DNA from: Alkalispirochaeta sp. | GTDB lineage: Bacteria; Spirochaetota; Spirochaetia; DSM-27196; Alkalispirochaetaceae | DNA: 64,000 nt | Direction: 5' to 3' | Assembly: GCA_965601925.1 (NCBI GenBank) | Contig: OZ271854.1 | Coordinates: forward strand, 416,001-480,000 | In this document: one piece after another, positions 37,534-49,001 of the stretch | How the letters are laid out: each line of letters starts with the position of its first letter | How positions within the stretch are numbered: the first letter of the stretch is position 1 | Notes under the pieces: generated by a model | The model's database searches: none | Told to the model about the DNA's origin: nothing | What the model saw: only the letters and a program-made list of their open reading frames with translations | Made by a program: the position numbers and the translations under genes

Positions 37534-38692
37534 GTCGCTCCTCACGCGGGAGCGTGGATTGAAACTGCAGTTCAGCCCTTGCTTTGCCGAAACGCTGGGT
37601 CGCTCCTCACGCGGGAGCGTGGATTGAAACTACTCCGACGATGACTCCTACGAGCGCTATATCAGGTCGCTCCTCACGCGGGAGCGTGGATTGAAACACC
37701 GTGTATCACGGCTACTTCCTCCCAACCCGCAGGTCGCTCCTCACGCGGGAGCGTGGATTGAAACTGGTACGTGAGATAGAGGAGCTCCTGCCTGTTGTGT
37801 CGCTCCTCACGCGGGAGCGTGGATTGAAACTTGCCCTCGGAGATGCTGGGCACGTTCCATGCGGGTCGCTCCTCACGCGGGAGCGTGGATTGAAACTCGT
37901 TGGGGCGCGACGGAACGGACTGGAAGAGCGTGTCGCTCCTCACGCGGGAGCGTGGATTGAAACACGGGCGGGGGTCTGCAGGCCCTCGAAAACGCGGGTC
38001 GCTCCTCACGCGGGAGCGTGGATTGAAACGTACCATGCGAAGTTGTGGTGGTTGTGGACCTCATGTCGCTCCTCGCGCGGGAGCGTGGATTGAAACTTTG
38101 TCGCATCACGGTCGTGACAGACGTTGTGACAGACGTCGCTCCTCACGCGGGAGCGTGGATTGAAACTCGAGGGAACGCGCCGGCGCCTTGCCGCGATGGG
38201 TCGCTCCTCACGCGGGAGCGTGGATTGAAACACCCATATCACACGTCAAAATTTTGCTGTATGACGTCGCTCCTCGCGCGGGAGCGTGGATTGAAACTAC
38301 GCGACGCAAGGCATGCGCCAAGCACTCGGGGGTCGCTCCTCACGCGGGAGCGTGGATTGAAACAACGAAGTGTCTGAGGAAGACTGGAAACGCGCCGGTC
38401 GCTCCCCATGCGGGGGCGTGGATTGAAACCGGGTAGCCGGCAAAAAGCGTCTCTCTCGTCGCGTCGCTCCCCATGCGGGGGCGTGGATTGAAACCGGATC
38501 AGCTGTGACGCGCCGACACCGGTAATGAGTCGCTCCTCATGCGGGAGCGTGGATTGAAACAAAAACGACTCGGTCGCATCCAGGGTGCCGCCCCGTCGCT
38601 CCCCATGCGGGGGCGTGGATTGAGACCTGTCCCACTCCAACGCCTCGCTCACGATCACGAGTCGCTCCTCACACAAGAGCATAGGTCGAAAC
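37534..38692 (+). CRISPR. type I-C CRISPR array 1: 18 repeats (last degenerate), 17 spacers
   Basis: 32-bp repeat GTCGCTCCTCACGCGGGAGCGTGGATTGAAAC; 33-38 bp spacers; variants toward the trailer. Confidence 0.98.
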
Positions 38693-38812: not shown

Positions 38813-41038
38813 ATGCAGTACTACGCCCATAGCCTTCCGGATACGCCTCCCTCGGAGTGGCAGCCGTTAGAGGATCATCTCTACGCCGTCGCCGACAAGG
38901 CGCGGGAGTTCGCCGAAGGCTTCGGGTTCGGCGATTGGGCGTATCTTGCCGGGTTGTGGCATGACCTCGGGAAGTACTCGCTGGACTTTCAGCAGAAAGT
39001 GTTGGGAAGCAATTCCGAAGGCTATCGCGACGGACACGTCGCCGAGAAACGGGGACGTGTCGACCATTCGAGTGCGGGAGCGCAGTGGGCCGACGCCCAA
39101 GAGACGTGGCATGTGGCAAGCCGCTTCATCAGCTACGCAATCGCAGGCCACCACGCGGGTCTTCCTGACTACGAGTCGGACAACAACGCCTGTCTTATTG
39201 AGAGACTCAAAAAACGGATACCGGCCACGGCGCCCCCAATAGAGATCGCCTCACCGCCGTACGCCGCCTCGCCCTCCTTACCGGCTTGGAATGAGACCGG
39301 TAAGGAGGGCTACTTTTCATTCTCCTTTGCGATCCGCATGATTTTCTCGTGCCTTGTTGACGCCGATTGTCTCGACACCGAGTCATTCTGCGACCGTGAA
39401 AAGCATTCGATACGAAATGGATTTCCTTCCGCCGTCGAGCTGAAAGACGCTCTGGAACGCAGGCTTGCCAAGTTTGATACGGCAGAGAAAACGACCGTGA
39501 ACAAAGTACGACAGGCCGTCTCGTCGGCGTGTCGTCTCGGTGCGAAGATGGAACCGGGCTTCTTCTCTCTAACCGTGCCGACCGGCGGCGGCAAGACCCT
39601 TGCGTCAATGCGATTCGCGCTCCACCACGCCCTCAAGTATGAGAAACGACGGGTGATATACGCAATTCCCTACACCAGCATCATCGAGCAGACCGTCGGC
39701 GTGTTCCGAGACGTATTCGGCGAAGAGGTCGTAGTCGAGCACCACAGTCGCGTCGAGGCCAATGATGCGCACGAGACGACGCGTACGCGTCTCGCAGTGG
39801 AGAACTGGGAGGCGCCGGTCGTCGTTACGACGAACGTGCAGTTTTTTGAATCGTTATTCGCCGATAGAACGTCGCGGTGCCGCAAGCTGCACAACATCGC
39901 CGGGAGCGTAATTATCCTGGACGAGGCGCAGATGCTGCCGATTAGCCTCTTGATCCCGACGCTCGCCGCGCTCAAAGAGCTCGTAGCACACTACGGCTGC
40001 AGTGTCGTCTTATGCACCGCGACGCAGCCGGCATTAGTCGCCGGTGATCATTTACCGCGCGGTTTGCAGAACGTCCGCGAGATCATACCGGAGCCCCGTG
40101 TCCACTTTAATGCACTCAAGCGGGTTCGGATACACGCGATCGGCCGGATCGATTGGGTTGAACTCACCGATCGCCTCGCCGGACATGACCACGTCCTCTG
40201 CATCGTCAACTCGCGACGGGACGCCCAAGAAATCTACGCTGCCCTTCTCCACAAGACTGAGCGCCGGGCCTGCTTTTATCTCACCACGTACCTGTGTCCC
40301 AAGCACCGAGACGCCGTGTTTGAAGAGATAAAACGTCGCCTCAGGGACGGGGAGCCGTGTCGTATTGTGAGCACGCAGCTCATCGAGGCGGGCGTCGACA
40401 TCGACCTCCCGGTAGTCTTTCGTGCCGTTGCCGGTATCGACAGCATCCTGCAGGCCGCGGGGCGCTGCAACCGCCACGGTACCCCGGGTCGCCTCGGCGA
40501 GGTGTTTGTCTTTGAGGGAGAGCGCCCGGCGCCCCAGGGACTTCTCAGACAAACGGCGCGCATCGGTGCAGAGTTCCTCGGCGAGGAGAACGACATTACC
40601 GAGTTCGACGCGATTACGCGGTACTTTGCGCGGCTCTATCAATACCAGGACGCTAACCTCGATGCGCGGGACCTTATGAAGCTTTTAGAACACGACGGCG
40701 CCCAGTCTCTCAGGTTTCAGTTTCGCGAGATCGCAGAACGTTACAAGCTGATCACGAGTGAAGATGTACCGATTGTGATTCGGTACGATAAAAAGGCGGA
40801 AGAACTCATACAGACACTACGGTACGCTCCGTCGCCGCGTGCGATTGTGCGACTGCTGCAGCCGTACATCGTTACGGTCCCGCAGAATGTAGCTCGGACG
40901 CTCGCACAACGGGGTGATGTATACTTGGTAGCCGATCTGATCTATGTGCTGGAGCGCAAAGACTTATACGAGAAGGACGGAGCCGGTTTTGTGATGCGCG
41001 AGTTCGCCGATATGGAACCGGCGGGGCTCACGTGGTAG
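38813..41038 (+). CDS. cas3: Cas3 HD nuclease-helicase
   Basis: HDLGK, GHHAGL, VDAD, VPTGGGKT, DEAQ, QAAGRCNR. Confidence 0.97.
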   Translation: MQYYAHSLPDTPPSEWQPLEDHLYAVADKAREFAEGFGFGDWAYLAGLWHDLGKYSLDFQQKVLGSNSEGYRDGHVAEKRGRVDHSSAGAQWADAQETWHVASRFISYAIAGHHAGLPDYESDNNACLIERLKKRIPATAPPIEIASPPYAASPSLPAWNETGKEGYFSFSFAIRMIFSCLVDADCLDTESFCDREKHSIRNGFPSAVELKDALERRLAKFDTAEKTTVNKVRQAVSSACRLGAKMEPGFFSLTVPTGGGKTLASMRFALHHALKYEKRRVIYAIPYTSIIEQTVGVFRDVFGEEVVVEHHSRVEANDAHETTRTRLAVENWEAPVVVTTNVQFFESLFADRTSRCRKLHNIAGSVIILDEAQMLPISLLIPTLAALKELVAHYGCSVVLCTATQPALVAGDHLPRGLQNVREIIPEPRVHFNALKRVRIHAIGRIDWVELTDRLAGHDHVLCIVNSRRDAQEIYAALLHKTERRACFYLTTYLCPKHRDAVFEEIKRRLRDGEPCRIVSTQLIEAGVDIDLPVVFRAVAGIDSILQAAGRCNRHGTPGRLGEVFVFEGERPAPQGLLRQTARIGAEFLGEENDITEFDAITRYFARLYQYQDANLDARDLMKLLEHDGAQSLRFQFREIAERYKLITSEDVPIVIRYDKKAEELIQTLRYAPSPRAIVRLLQPYIVTVPQNVARTLAQRGDVYLVADLIYVLERKDLYEKDGAGFVMREFADMEPAGLTW

Positions 41039-41140
41039 CCGATAGGGCACCGGTATAGACGGAGTCACGGGAATCCCGCTCTTCTCGGAGCAGGCTCCTG
41101 TTCACTTGATCACTGTTTATACATTGTATATCCTCATCGT

Positions 41141-41377
41141 ATGGAAGCAAAAATACAGCGATGGGGAAATAGTTTGGGCATTCGAATCCCCGCGGCGATG
41201 GCGCGGGAACTCCATTTACAGAACGGATCCGTCGTCGATGTCGTAGAGGAGTCGAACAGCATCGTTATCCGCCCCGCGAAGAGGCACGATATACACTCCC
41301 TTTTGAACGCAATAACCGACGATAATCGGCACTCCGAGGTCGCCTGGGGCACTCAAGAAGGGAACGAGGCGTGGTGA
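41141..41377 (+). CDS. mazE: MazE/AbrB-type antitoxin
   Basis: IQRWGNSLGIRIP, C-terminal W...G.E.W; overlaps mazF. Confidence 0.93.
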   Translation: MEAKIQRWGNSLGIRIPAAMARELHLQNGSVVDVVEESNSIVIRPAKRHDIHSLLNAITDDNRHSEVAWGTQEGNEAW

Positions 41378-41709
41378 CGAGCGCCTACGTGCCAGATCGC
41401 GGTGACATCGTCTGGTTAAGTTTTTCTCCGCAATCGGGCCATGAGCAAGCGGGTAGGCGTCCCGCGATCGTACTCTCACCGGCCGAGTACAACGGCAAAA
41501 CCGATCTTATGATCGCGTGTCCGATCACCAGCAGAATAAAGGGATATCCATTTGAGACTCGCATACGAGGAGCGCGAATCGACGGTGTCGTCCTCTCCGA
41601 CCAGGTAAAGAGTCTCGACTGGAAAACGCGTAATGCAACCTTTGCGGAGAAGGCGAAGGCGGAGGTTCTGCGGGAGGTACGAGGTAAACTGATGGTGCTC
41701 CTCGATTGA
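41371..41709 (+). CDS. mazF: MazF/PemK endoribonuclease toxin
   Basis: YVPDRGDIVW, GHEQAGRRPA, CPITS, DQVKSLDW. Confidence 0.95.
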   Translation: MVTSAYVPDRGDIVWLSFSPQSGHEQAGRRPAIVLSPAEYNGKTDLMIACPITSRIKGYPFETRIRGARIDGVVLSDQVKSLDWKTRNATFAEKAKAEVLREVRGKLMVLLD

Positions 41710-41825
41710 GGAATGGAGTGCCGCTTATGAATCAGTATCGTCGTGTGGTGCCCGTATTTGGTATGTGACGACGAGGGGCCGCTCTGACCTCGAGGCAACG
41801 AGCCTCCAATTTCTTGCTCTCTTGC

Positions 41826-41871
41826 TTGACAGGTGCACTTCTTGGATGTACCATGATACGAGAAGTACGAA
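41826..41871 (+). promoter_or_regulatory. sigma70-type promoter overlapped by a TTC-PAM protospacer for the mini-array spacer
   Basis: TTGACA (41826-31)-N17-TACCAT (41849-54); minus strand TTC-GTACTTCTCGTATCATG (41871-41852). Confidence 0.75.
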
Positions 41872-42094
41872 ATATAAAAAATCAATATCAACGCATTCGC
41901 TTTCAAATAATCGAGAGTACGGAAAGTCGCGCGATTGAATATGAGGAACAAACGTACAACCTGCCGAACAGGGCGCGAGGGAGTCAAAGTACCCGGTCAG
42001 CTTGGTCATTGTTCGCTGGATTACTTCACATCGCAAATTGGATTCGCAGCGCTTTTGGTGGATAAAGAAATCAGGACTGTGCATCGATCTTTTT

Positions 42095-42188
42095 GTCGGG
42101 CTTTTTACCCGCGGATTGAAACGTACTACTCGTTTCATGTGTGTTCGTGAGGAACCGGCCCTCGGGTCGGTTCCTCACCTTTCTTCAA
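42095..42188 (+). ncRNA. crRNA-like regulatory RNA (degenerate repeat + 24-nt spacer + terminator), CreA/CreR-like
   Basis: GTCGGGCTTTTTACCCGCGGATTGAAAC keeps a stem and an 11-nt handle; spacer matches the upstream promoter; 14-bp hairpin plus CTTTCTT. Confidence 0.8.
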
Positions 42189-42276
42189 TTATCACCAGCA
42201 ATACCGATAAAAATTATTTTAGAATATACAAAAGTATGTGATAATATGACCACAACTAAATATTGTGGGGAGCGGT

Positions 42277-42927
42277 GTGTCCTTCGGAATAACACTCAAA
42301 GCCTGGGGTCCGTTCGCACTCTTTACGCGCCCGGAGATGAAGGCCGAACGTGTCAGCTACGACGTCATGACGCCCTCCGCGGCCCGGGGCATTCTCGATG
42401 CAATCTACTGGAAGCCGGGGATGCGGTGGGTCGTCGATCGGATTGAGGTGCGCAAGCCGATCCGCTTCACTTCCATTCGACGCAACGAGATTGCGGGAAA
42501 GATCCCGGTTGGAAAGGTGAAAAGCGCGATGAGAGGCGGCGAGATGCCCTTTACCGTGGTCGAGGATCACCGCCAACAACGTTCATCGTTGGTGCTCCGG
42601 GATGTCGAGTATCTCATCGATGCGCACTTCGAGCTGACCGGCTACGGCGATAACAATGAGGCGAAACATATCGATACGTTTCGTCGTCGAGCGCGGTCCG
42701 GGCGCTGTCACCACCAACCGTGCATGGGTACACGGGAGTTTCCGGCCTACTTTGAACTGATCGAGGATAATCGTCCCCCCAAACATTACCGCGAAAGCCG
42801 CGATCTCGGATGGATGTTGTACGACATGAACTTTGCCGCTGATCCCGAAAGTCCGTCGCCGAGCTTCTTCCGCGCCGAGATGGTGGAAGGGGTAATCGAC
42901 CTGCACGGGGCGGACATACGGGGATAG
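42277..42927 (+). CDS. cas5c: type I-C Cas5 (Cas5c/Cas5d) pre-crRNA endonuclease
   Basis: ALFTRPEMKAERVSYDVMTPSAARG, MGTREF, LGWMLYD. Confidence 0.97.
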   Translation: MSFGITLKAWGPFALFTRPEMKAERVSYDVMTPSAARGILDAIYWKPGMRWVVDRIEVRKPIRFTSIRRNEIAGKIPVGKVKSAMRGGEMPFTVVEDHRQQRSSLVLRDVEYLIDAHFELTGYGDNNEAKHIDTFRRRARSGRCHHQPCMGTREFPAYFELIEDNRPPKHYRESRDLGWMLYDMNFAADPESPSPSFFRAEMVEGVIDLHGADIRG

Positions 42928-42929
42928 CG

Positions 42930-44702
42930 ATGATTCTGCAAGAGCTTGTGCGCCATTACGACCGACTCACCGCCGAAGGTTCCAACGAGTTACCGCCCGA
43001 AGGATTTTCTCGTGAGAAAATTCACTTCGTCCTTCGCATCGACCGAGATGGAAATGCACTGAACGCTATCCCGCTGACCGGCGAGGATGCAAAGGGAAAA
43101 ACGCAGGCGTTTCAAGAGCGTATCGTCCCGAAATACAAGGATAGGGCAAACGACGTGTTTCCTTTTTTTTTGTGGGACAAGACGGCGTATGTAGTTGGGG
43201 TCGATCCGACCGCACGGTCCCAACGCCTCACCGAACAGTTCGTTGCCTTCAAGGGGTTACACCACGCGATTGGGGATCACATTGATGAGCCGGAGATGAG
43301 AGCGGTCCTTGGGTTCCTTGACGGTTGGTCTCCGGAGATGGTGGATGAGGTGCCGGGACTGAGAGAGCTCATCGGCGGTAATCTTGTGTTTGAGGTCGCG
43401 GGTTTTAACCGTCCGGTCTTCGAGAACCCGGTACTGCGTAACGCGTGGCTACGACACATGCACGCACAGCTTGGTGGCACAAGCTCCGTGTGTCTGGCAA
43501 CGGGAGAGACGACAAAGATAGCTCGCACTCATCCCAAAATACGTGGCGTATTCGGGAGTCAGACGAGTGGTGCGGCAATCGTCTCTTTTAACGACGACGC
43601 CTATACCTCATACGGCAAAACCCAGAGCTACAATGCACCCGTAGGTGCCGCGGCGGCGGAGAAGTATACCAAAATGCTCAACTATCTGTTGCGGCGCGGC
43701 AGCCGCAACGTCGTACGCATCGGCGATACGAGCGTCGTGTTCTGGTGTGAGACACAGACGCCCCTTGAGGGCGGAATCGGCATGCTCATGGGACGTCGGG
43801 ACGATGATACGATAGGTGACGATACGATCCGCGCCTTTCTCATGCGCCTCAAAAAAGGCCTGCCATACGATTTTGAACCCGATCGCCGCTTTTTCATCCT
43901 GGGGTTAGCGGCGCCCAGCAAGTCACGCCTCTCGGTGCGCTATTGGTATCAGGGCACAACAGGTGAACTTGCCGACCGCCTGCGGCTCCACCTCCAAGAT
44001 ACGGATATCATCTCGATGTGGGACGACGACCCTGTCCCGCCCAGTGTGTGGCACATGCTCATTTCGGCCGTCTTGGGTGGCGACGCGGGCAACATCGACC
44101 AGCGCATGCAGGAGACGCTCATGCGCGCAATTCTCTTCGGCACGCCGTATCCGCGGCGACTCTACAGCGCAATACTCGATCGCATCCGTGTAGGAGATCG
44201 GCGCATACGCGCCTTCGAAACGGTTCGCGCCGGCATCATCCGCGGCTACCTAAAACGCCGAAGACGCAGTCTACAAACTCAGGAATCGGCCAAGGAGGTT
44301 CCCATAATGCTACAACGGGATACAGAGAGCGCTCCGTATCAACTCGGTAGGCTCTTTGCGGTGTACGAAAAGATTCAAAAGGCTTCGTTTGGTACCAGAA
44401 CGCTCAACAGAACGATTAGAGATCGGTTCTATGCGTCCGCGTCGACGACTCCGCGACGGAGCTTTGCGACGATTACGAAACTCTCGATCGCCCATCAAAA
44501 AAAGCTGCCCGAGAATGCACGAACGTACTACGACAAGCTCCTGCAAGAGATCGCGGACCGTCTTCATCCCGACCGATATCCGAGCCGGCTCTCTCAGGAG
44601 GACCAGGGCCTCTTTGCCCTCGGCTACTACCACCAGCGCAAAGAACTCTTTACCCCAAAAGGCGACGCCACGGACGCGGAACAGACAAACACGGAGGAAT
44701 AG
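42930..44702 (+). CDS. cas8c: type I-C Cas8c/Csd1
   Basis: MILQEL, FLWD, SFN..AYTSYGK, YQLGRLFA, FALGYYHQ. Confidence 0.96.
   Translation: MILQELVRHYDRLTAEGSNELPPEGFSREKIHFVLRIDRDGNALNAIPLTGEDAKGKTQAFQERIVPKYKDRANDVFPFFLWDKTAYVVGVDPTARSQRLTEQFVAFKGLHHAIGDHIDEPEMRAVLGFLDGWSPEMVDEVPGLRELIGGNLVFEVAGFNRPVFENPVLRNAWLRHMHAQLGGTSSVCLATGETTKIARTHPKIRGVFGSQTSGAAIVSFNDDAYTSYGKTQSYNAPVGAAAAEKYTKMLNYLLRRGSRNVVRIGDTSVVFWCETQTPLEGGIGMLMGRRDDDTIGDDTIRAFLMRLKKGLPYDFEPDRRFFILGLAAPSKSRLSVRYWYQGTTGELADRLRLHLQDTDIISMWDDDPVPPSVWHMLISAVLGGDAGNIDQRMQETLMRAILFGTPYPRRLYSAILDRIRVGDRRIRAFETVRAGIIRGYLKRRRRSLQTQESAKEVPIMLQRDTESAPYQLGRLFAVYEKIQKASFGTRTLNRTIRDRFYASASTTPRRSFATITKLSIAHQKKLPENARTYYDKLLQEIADRLHPDRYPSRLSQEDQGLFALGYYHQRKELFTPKGDATDAEQTNTEE
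44307..44702 (+). CDS. cas11: Cas11c small subunit from an internal start in cas8c (131 aa)
   Basis: AAGGAGG 8 nt before in-frame ATG 44307, at the start of the C-terminal helical domain. Confidence 0.8.
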   Translation: MLQRDTESAPYQLGRLFAVYEKIQKASFGTRTLNRTIRDRFYASASTTPRRSFATITKLSIAHQKKLPENARTYYDKLLQEIADRLHPDRYPSRLSQEDQGLFALGYYHQRKELFTPKGDATDAEQTNTEE

Positions 44703-47776: not shown

Positions 47777-49001
47777 GTCGCTCCCCATGCGGGAGCGTGG
47801 ATTGAAACGGTATCTCAGAGACATCGATATCGAGGTGAACGCGTCGCTCCCCATGCGGGAGCGTGGATTGAAACCGTTCCGCGTCCTGGTGTTGATATGG
47901 GCGGCGATGTCGCTCCCCATGCGGGAGCGTGGATTGAAACGACTTTTGGATAGCGGTGCTCGAAGACTCTACCACGTCGCTCCCCATGCGGGAGCGTGGA
48001 TTGAAACCGAACCACATCCTCGGTAAAACCGTACTCTCTTACGTCGCTCCCCATGCGGGAGCGTGGATTGAAACCCTAGATTGAGGGATTCCTCCCAACC
48101 CTGGGTCGTGTCGCTCCCCATGCGGGAGCGTGGATTGAAACTTTGGGAGATTGACTGACAGTGTATCCATTATCGGTCGCTCCCCATGCGGGAGCGTGGA
48201 TTGAAACATACGCATCATCGATACGTAGAAGTGCCGCCAGGGTCGCTCCCCATGCGGGAGCGTGGATTGAAACTTTGACCCCGAGCGGACCCGCGAGAGG
48301 ATGGAATCGTCGCTCCCCATGCGGGAGCGTGGATTGAAACATGGACAGTCTCGACGCTGATCTCCATGGGGTGTGTCGCTCCCCATGCGGGAGCGTGGAT
48401 TGAAACAATGCGGAACAGCACACGGGTGCGCCGCCTCGCGCGTCGCTCCCCATGCGGGAGCGTGGATTGAAACTCCCATAACACATCCGGGAAGAGCAGA
48501 TAGAGCAAGTCGCTCCCCATGCGGGAGCGTGGATTGAAACATCGTGATTGCGTATCTTGCGGGACTCCATCATAGTCGCTCCCCATGCGGGAGCGTGGAT
48601 TGAAACGGGAACGTGTCGACGAATTGAATGAACGTCTCCGGTCGCTCCCCATGCGGGAGCGTGGATTGAAACTCTTGGTATTGGTCGTGGTTTTTGCGAG
48701 AGAAAGTCGCTCCCCATGCGGGAGCGTGGATTGAAACACCGGTCCGAACCGTATCGTCTATGAAGTCACAGTCGCTCCCCATGCGGGAGCGTGGATTGAA
48801 ACGACGCGGAGCGCGCGGCGGACCGCAAGGAGTCCGGTCGCTCCCCACGCGGGAGCGTGGATTGAAACGCGAGATCCAACATCCGTATCCCGTTGTAAAT
48901 CGCGTCGCTCCCCACGCGGGAGCGTGGATTGAAACATGAGATCCGTAGTGGTCGGACCGTTGTCGATGAGTCGCTCCTCATACGGAAGCGCGAAAAAAGG
49001 G
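47777..49001 (+). CRISPR. type I-C CRISPR array 2: 19 repeats (last degenerate), 18 spacers
   Basis: 32-bp repeat GTCGCTCCCCATGCGGGAGCGTGGATTGAAAC; 33-35 bp spacers. Confidence 0.98.

Follow-up and report, generated by a model that had tools for sequence, protein, structure and literature searches.

A small protein gene as candidate cargo of a guide-targeted promoter in a spirochaete type I-C cas locus

What does a promoter control when the type I-C locus in which it lies appears to target it with a guide of its own? The locus in question belongs to a genome examined as a single contig of 5.05 Mb with 60% GC, which encodes three FlaA flagellar sheath genes, of a kind linked with spirochaetes. 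In the window (the whole 64,000-nt stretch of DNA that was analysed, whose numbering is used throughout) the locus runs in the order array, cas3, mazE, mazF, a 567-nt gap, cas5, cas8c, cas7, cas4, cas1 and array (Table 1). The original prediction saw in this gap a guide-repressed promoter with a cargo of unassigned kind, and this framing proved right, with a TTC-flanked match of 15/15 positions on the promoter. Among the three options that it offered for the cargo, a small protein is now the best supported, while an RNA toxin failed the tests run and autoregulation alone is weakened.

The two arrays (37534-38626 and 47777-48950) flank the cas genes in the same orientation and have related leaders, 75% over 75 nt; the genome holds 35 repeats in all. 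The DNA between mazF and cas5 was absent from the 60 relatives searched, in 6 of which cas3 is joined directly to cas5. Two Logan contigs of the same sample that span 40000-44000 have zero differing letters against the assembly, an agreement that is not independent because these contigs are possibly the assembly's own source. Cluster look-ups with the Cas and MazF proteins of the window returned this genome only, and a search of sequencing runs for the locus gave no RNA run among the matches listed. Two reverse-strand ORFs, of 137 aa and 200 aa, matched no Pfam family above the cut-off, and the 137-aa ORF is absent from the 15-billion-protein collection. The mazEF pair has its own promoter-like site (TTGATC at 41106, with TATCCT) and is not targeted by the guide, whose best PAM-flanked match upstream of mazE is 8/15. 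At this site (41106-41143) mazE is apparently leaderless, with the end of the -10 box 7 nt 5′ of the ATG and no SD, and a TATACA/TGTATA palindrome lies between the -35 and -10 boxes. Just 3′ of mazF, a hairpin contains a 13-codon SD-led ORF (41727-41768) in the frame of the cargo ORF, with one TGA between the two.

Table 1. Features of the cas3-cas5 interval and its surroundings, in window coordinates
Feature	Position	Strand	Basis or remark
cas3 (type I-C)	38813..41038	+	Pfam Cas3_HD, DEAD, Cas3-like_C_2
mazE (41141-41377) and mazF (41371/41374-41709), type II toxin-antitoxin pair	41141..41709	+	Pfam PF04014, PF02452
Sigma70-type promoter, TTGACA-17-TACCAT	41826..41854	+	10/12 consensus; start site inferred near 41861
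Protospacer (41868 to 41852) with PAM TTC (41871-41869)	41852..41871	-	Covers -10 box, inferred start site and SD-like motif
70-aa version of the cargo ORF, ATG start, frame shared with the 63-codon ORF	41853..42065	+	
Weak SD-like motif AGAAG, 8 nt 5′ of ATA	41861..41865	+	
Cargo, 63-codon ORF, ATA at the homologue's start; candidate small protein toxin	41874..42065	+	P0001 homology, substitution test
Degenerate repeat, 28 nt versus 32	42095..42122	+	4-bp hairpin directly 5′ of 11-nt handle; fold
Spacer of crRNA-like guide	42123..42146	+	
14-bp hairpin with weak U-tract (5/8)	42147..42178	+	Region folding z = -5.4
Separate cas5-operon promoter-like site (TTTAGA, TG-extended -10) in a 31% GC stretch	42218..42247	+	
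cas5c, first gene of cas5-cas8c-cas7-cas4-cas1	42277..42927	+	Pfam; start per protein collection

The guide and the promoter that it matches

The guide unit is a solitary repeat that keeps a hairpin and a conserved 3′ end, followed by spacer and 3′ hairpin, directly before cas5c in the cas3-cas5c interval; the guide is real, and its sequence anatomy is confirmed. Outside both arrays, GYGGATTGAAAC occurs in the degenerate repeat only (1/35 genome-wide). The predicted guide RNA measures 50-53 nt from handle to loop, and cas5 starts 155 nt downstream of the degenerate repeat. None of the 33 array spacers examined has a seed match within 41700-42270.

Within spacer nt 1-17 the guide matches its target at 15/15 pairing positions, with mismatches at 6 and 12. 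Besides the spacer itself this target is unique in the 5.05 Mb genome, where the next best site reaches 13. None of 300 random guides exceeded 13 matches in the 13-kb locus, which puts the match far above chance. The targeted promoter is also the best plus-strand promoter match in 41000-42400. Relative to protospacer position 1, its -35 box lies at -42 and its -10 box ends at -14, the start site being a predicted one. At the cas5-proximal promoter-like site the best PAM-flanked match of the guide is only 9/15, and at the cas3-proximal site it is 7/15. The middle base of the AGAAG motif coincides with protospacer position 6, which the guide leaves unread. By analogy with known guide-repressed promoters, we consider it very probable that the guide represses the TTGACA promoter.

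The cargo reading frame and its homologue

The original prediction drew the cargo as an ORF of 70 aa at 41853-42065. This ORF is present at these coordinates, with its first six codons under the protospacer, its stop 29 nt 5′ of the pseudo-repeat (start 42095) and its ATG at 41853 overlapping the -10 hexamer TACCAT (41849-54), all as described. It is uncalled by the gene finder, and its ATG has a weak SD (-3.6 kcal). The accompanying claim that an upstream transcript would be required did not survive, since the start codon of a homologue falls at 41874-76, within the transcript of the targeted promoter, so that an upstream transcript is unneeded if the ATA at this position is used.

This homologue, P0001, is a protein of 63 aa from one 2254-nt Logan contig, matched in a search with the 70-aa ORF. 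It aligns gap-free over 41874-42062 with 45/63 residues identical (71%), comes without the seven N-terminal residues of the 70-aa form and starts with Met where the window reads ATA. Because a second ATA/Met swap between the two occurs at residue 12, the first Met of P0001 is perhaps an ordinary substitution that was picked as the start. Inside the predicted transcript the conserved frame has no ATG, GTG or TTG start, apart from one TTG that would leave just the last 18 codons. The ATA at 41874 lies 13 nt past the inferred start site, and the leader around it is unstructured; an AGAAG-type motif 5-10 nt upstream, a feature noticed post hoc, accompanies 2% of random ATA codons, and its pairing energy of -3.0 kcal is within the random range. 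In E. coli, AUA initiation is given as 1-2% of that of AUG (10.1101/063800). An ATA start combined with a weak SD therefore suggests either low-level protein or a gene that is starting to decay, two outcomes that we hold about equally likely; the copy in the window may be a weakened or degenerating one.

Selection on the frame was assessed by simulating neutral change to the same 17 differences, for this one pair and on protein sequence alone, and 28-29% of neutral runs left the frame open. Compared with the open neutral runs, the changes in P0001, which was itself found by virtue of being an open frame, are more conservative (mean BLOSUM, p 0.024-0.035) and concentrated in the linker (p 0.023-0.027), whereas the other two of the four statistics, which consider how many changes are positive and how long the longest identical run is, are not significant (p 0.06-0.08). 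This one pair of sequences thus offers modest evidence that suggests selection on the protein. The homology search proposed for the 70-aa ORF returned a single homologue, P0001, and no other in the searches of order, class and phylum: the 98 other genomes from the order gave no hit, 400 from the class gave two weak hits at chance level (one with stops), and 320 from the phylum gave no hit. Viral contigs, plasmids and phages likewise gave no homologue of the cargo, the 5.8-billion set returned P0001 again and no other, 1.84 billion representatives returned P0001 plus one unrelated-looking repeat protein (E 5e-4), and ESM Atlas gave no usable hit.

The cargo is laid out as a polar N-terminal half, a variable linker and a C-terminal hydrophobic helix. 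Its C-terminus had been described as amphipathic; a moderately hydrophobic helix is indeed present, but its amphipathicity is not significant against shuffles (p = 0.085). The 19-residue Kyte-Doolittle maximum of this helix is 0.96, below transmembrane hydrophobicity and below the 1.85-2.02 of the transmembrane-like cargo ORFs of other loci. In an AlphaFold model of the cargo (pLDDT 63, pTM 0.25), which is too weak for a fold search, the helix at 41-61 is the sole confident part. Neither the window ORF nor P0001 nor any of six cargo ORFs reached the cut-off of a Pfam family. Two further elements had been pointed out in this stretch. The ORF from ATG 41941 does run for 69 aa through the repeat and spacer to 42150, but the weak SD ascribed to it is absent (+0.3 kcal). 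The 15-mer at 41926-41940 exists and is repeat-like, as proposed, but shows no sign of repeat function: a pattern fitted to it post hoc has 12 occurrences in the genome, and because the sequence 3′ of it gives background target matches only (10/15) and the 15-mer itself falls in six codons identical in P0001, it does not appear to act as a repeat.

Judging from the sequence comparison, a 63-codon protein gene at 41874-42065 is the most likely cargo, rather than the 70-aa ORF as drawn. It is probable that the cargo is, or once was, a protein gene. That it is a toxin active today in this genome is a candidate reading by analogy, and a doubtful one.

The same slot in other cas3-cas5 loci

Among 160 loci fetched with cas5, cas3 lies upstream in 142 and the gap between the two exceeds 100 nt in 24. 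A plus-strand pseudo-repeat with a seed-matching TTC target was found in 11 of the 24 gapped loci (11/142 other cas3-cas5 junctions), calls for which the match past the seed is, in several of the 11 loci, short or in need of a shift. One of these slots is occupied by a Fic-domain gene (L133). In 6 of the 10 slots without a large gene there is an SD-led ORF, of 30-56 aa, versus 0.72 expected from dinucleotide shuffles, and 4 of these 6 ORFs are transmembrane-like (19-residue hydrophobicity of at least 1.8) versus 0.017 expected, under thresholds (28-80 aa, hydrophobicity 1.8) that were chosen after seeing the ORFs. The remaining four slots comprise one with a CreT-like mini-ORF, one with unread bases and two without a clear ORF. 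The ORF stop lies 57 nt before the end of the repeat in the window, and 55, 56 and 58 nt before it in L063, L061 and L133. Loci with a cargo ORF include those of Luteimonas huabeiensis (L074), Pannonibacter carbonis (L057), Phaeospirillum tilakii (L063) and Woodsholea maritima (L060). The small-cargo layout was present in none of 49 class-level spirochaete loci with a cas5 start whose gaps were read. In the 15-billion-protein collection, the L074 and L226 ORFs are absent and the L117 ORF is present.

Other kinds of content were also seen in these intervals. A Burkholderiaceae I-C slot (L058:3808-3880) has a very strong SD, a three-codon ORF with AGG and then a hairpin, making it a candidate CreT-like RNA toxin. 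The Fic-domain gene (L133:709-1401) stands under an I-C guide; Fic cargo is mentioned for type I-F in the text of the CRISIS preprint (10.1101/2024.12.27.630466). At L088:3640-4001 a reverse-strand guide is aimed directly at the cas5 promoter in a CreR-like manner. L228 carries DNA that looks by eye like an insertion sequence directly 5′ of its pseudo-repeat, with the guide kept and no target in the 1.4 kb examined. Between cas3 and cas5, L208 and L242 have small gene pairs that resemble, by eye, type II toxin-antitoxin pairs such as mazEF, with no guide detected.

One slot ORF, that of L074 (3742-3912), belongs to a five-member family in Xanthomonadales. It was followed into the taxonomic family of its host, where 300 genomes were scored and 21 loci with cas5 were read. 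Homologues of the L074 ORF occur in L226, L227 and L234 among these 21 loci and, from an order-wide search, in L257. All five are 51-68-aa proteins with an acidic start, an alternating hydrophobic-basic stretch and a transmembrane-like end. Among them pS is 0.57-0.99 versus a pN of 0.19-0.42, and the third codon position is the most changed in 10/10 pairs. Only two of the ten pairs are unsaturated, with dN/dS values of 0.22 and 0.29. On these substitution patterns the Xanthomonadales slot family is under purifying selection, and the slot therefore does encode real small membrane-type proteins. Guide seed and target co-change in L074, L226, L227 and L234; in L257 there is no TT-flanked seed match for the guide. 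In L257 the cargo and guide stand between two cas3 matches, a short N-terminal one before them and a longer one after them, and the module there apparently lies where the start of the cas operon has been rearranged. The L074 ORF has no homologue in the protein set searched, the ESM Atlas hits of the L226 ORF are unnamed viral proteins that score under 0.9 and serve as a lead only, and the AlphaFold model of the family (pLDDT 61) is too weak for a fold search.

The window ORF has a plan similar to that of the Xanthomonadales family, but homology between them is unsupported, as it is for the cargo of the other slots (hhalign 0.2%, no HMM hit). P0001 versus L226 gave p = 0.0045, as the best of 8 pairs in the conserved frame. 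A stretch of the window, 41980-42003, matches the L227 cargo gene at 22/24 nt in a frame other than the P0001-conserved one; against the L227 slot an equally high score was reached by 3 of 20000 random pieces of the genome, with 15 slots tried, and the match is possibly a remnant of shared origin, or chance.

Alternative readings, known systems and a proposed module

The roughly 230 nt between target and pseudo-repeat could hold no functional cargo and be only the leader of the guide RNA, in which case the guide would repress its own promoter and readthrough past the hairpin would tune cas5-cas8-cas7 in a CreR-like manner. The transcript without a canonical start fits such a leader, as do the weak U-tract after the hairpin (5/8), the slots of L045 and L137 (2/10 comparable slots) without an SD-led ORF over three codons, that of L236 with none, and the position of cas5 61-136 nt after the repeat in 10/11 comparable loci. 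We nevertheless consider a bare leader unlikely, given the gap-free 63-codon homologue with conservative changes and the placement of cas5, which here lies 155 nt on. The case for autoregulation alone is weaker in that a terminator-like hairpin, and after it a separate promoter-like site unmatched by the guide, precede cas5, although readthrough from the targeted promoter into cas5 may occur. It is rather improbable that translation of the 70-aa form begins at ATG 41853 on RNA reading through from the mazEF promoter, with Cascade acting as a roadblock and the TTGACA promoter serving the guide only. For this arrangement there is an in-frame ATG with a weak SD (-3.6 kcal) and just a 5-bp hairpin between mazF and the ORF (region z = -1.4), but the seven extra residues are absent from P0001, no mazE or mazF match is found in any comparable locus (L011-L170), and comparable loci with a clear promoter have the small ORF behind a promoter of its own.

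Published CreT toxins require efficient initiation and a hairpin (PMC8501985, PMC10097628, as far as these describe them), and a CreT-like RNA toxin built on the ATG AGG at 41941, or on another element of the leader, would have to work with an ATG without SD (+0.3 kcal), a single rare codon, no mini-ORF and an RNA (41861-42094) that folds no better than shuffles (z = +1.4). We regard this as very unlikely, even though AGG, at 3.9% of Arg codons, counts as a minor codon in this genome, the L058 slot does hold a CreT-like strong SD, three-codon ORF and hairpin, and CreT RNAs are described as poorly conserved, with one bacterial CreT acting as RNA despite a conserved mini-ORF (PMC10097628). Finally, what is repressed could be a divergent leftward RNA, antisense to the end of mazF, from a weak minus-strand promoter (TTTTTA-16-TATCAT, 8/12) whose -10 box (TATCAT) lies inside the protospacer, much as creT is described as divergent from creA in Acinetobacter (PMC10097628); with a -35 box that matches at 3/6, four minus-strand sites in 41700-42150 that score equal and an apparently conserved protein on the plus strand, this is highly improbable. 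Our preferred reading, which we consider moderately likely, is a CRISPR-repressed module of the CRISIS/CreTA type with a small protein gene as cargo, toxic or growth-slowing on de-repression.

The closest comparison is with the I-C loci of the CRISIS preprint (10.1101/2024.12.27.630466), whose text describes solitary repeats before cas5c with RNAs that are 48-50 nt long and finish in the loop of a 3′ hairpin, cargo promoters repressed 5- to 60-fold, and tested cargo that is often harmful if overexpressed or de-repressed; its I-C screen began with loci interrupted by annotated genes. The window has in common with these loci the subtype I-C, the order of target/promoter, cargo, solitary repeat unit, 3′ hairpin and cas5c, the TTC PAM (the CRISIS criterion being TTC or TTA), the mismatches at 6 and 12 and the 11-nt handle, with a guide RNA of 50-53 nt predicted here versus 48-50 measured there. 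In contrast, the cargo named in the text of that preprint consists of annotated defence genes (Nezha, Gabija and eight new systems) of 440-1026 aa plus 2TM and 3TM proteins, none of them described there as a protein of 30-65 aa. In eight CRISIS systems the start site is reported 37-46 bp downstream of the target, whereas in the window the target lies on the -10/+1 region, not on the -35 side, and there is no promoter-like site at the CRISIS-reported spacing from the target. Type I-F offers a precedent for a target downstream of the start site (PMC10097628). In a further difference from the CRISIS loci as described, cas5 in the window apparently has its own promoter.

Other known systems share parts of this arrangement. 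In CrePA of Acinetobacter baylyi type I-F, for which an anti-anti-CRISPR role is proposed, the gene for a small protein lies between cas3 and the Cascade genes and is kept silent by a guide that matches only in part (10.1101/2024.01.05.574328). CrePA differs, by the same account, in its subtype I-F, two repeats, CC PAM and CreP, a 103-aa KilAC domain; this domain is absent from the window ORF and P0001, which match no Pfam family. CreTA likewise has a guide-repressed promoter, and creTA forms one operon in Halobacterium hubeiense (PMC8501985, PMC10097628, 10.64898/2026.06.02.729485), while the Acinetobacter WCHA45 CreTA is reported to have its target downstream of the start site, as in the window. 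Unlike the CreTA systems so described, the cargo region here lacks an efficient start followed by paired rare or proline codons and lacks a stable hairpin, and its 63-codon frame appears to be conserved as protein. With CreR and regulatory mini-arrays (10.1101/2023.03.03.530964, PMC12737573), as these sources present them, it shares the partial match, the PAM next to a better-kept repeat and negative feedback; it differs in the ORF and hairpin that follow the target promoter and in a cas5-proximal promoter-like site unmatched by the guide. The cargo also invites comparison with type I toxin-antitoxin systems. Hok, TisB and Fst are short proteins with one hydrophobic helix that are silenced by RNA; in the window, silencing would instead be transcriptional and Cascade-dependent.

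In the proposed module, the promoter at 41826-54 would give one RNA holding both the 63-codon ORF and the guide, Cas5c would cleave after the pseudo-repeat hairpin to release a guide of ~50 nt, and guide-loaded Cascade would bind the -10/+1 region. Since a pairing of 17 nt is too short for Cas3 cutting, the promoter would be repressed, which would amount to negative feedback on the guide together with silencing of the cargo. If Cascade were lost or blocked by an anti-CRISPR, the promoter would fire, the small protein would be made, and the cell would be slowed or killed. We infer processing and repression by analogy with the known systems, translation and toxicity by analogy with the slot, where tested cargo is often harmful, and with CrePA, and membrane association of the cargo as well.

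More broadly, we put forward the tentative idea, possible but somewhat short of probable, that in I-C loci of several phyla unrelated membrane-helix proteins of 30-65 aa, most of which gene finders overlook, have independently and repeatedly been taken up to serve as toxins or abortive-infection effectors under Cascade repression, with the spirochaete copy further throttled by its AUA start and an SD whose variable base falls on the one seed-proximal position that the guide leaves unread. A June 2026 preprint counts three classes of CRISPR-repressed toxins (10.64898/2026.06.02.729485). If the idea is true, these proteins would be a further class beside the tRNA-sequestering, proline-codon and KilAC classes. 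We found no 30-65-aa membrane proteins under I-C guides in the openly readable papers and preprint texts covered, though such loci may be listed in papers behind subscription or in supplements such as the CRISIS locus table. The guide mechanism is already known, and the small-protein cargo would be the new part. Seemingly empty slots may hold tiny membrane proteins, and for that reason an antitoxin role could apply to many I-C guides that are at present interpreted as cas autoregulation, with the guide itself a precise means of finding such small genes. Should these proteins prove toxic, anti-anti-CRISPR effectors would gain a further class and small antibacterial proteins new members. The value would lie more in the cargo class than in the single, possibly weakened copy in the window.
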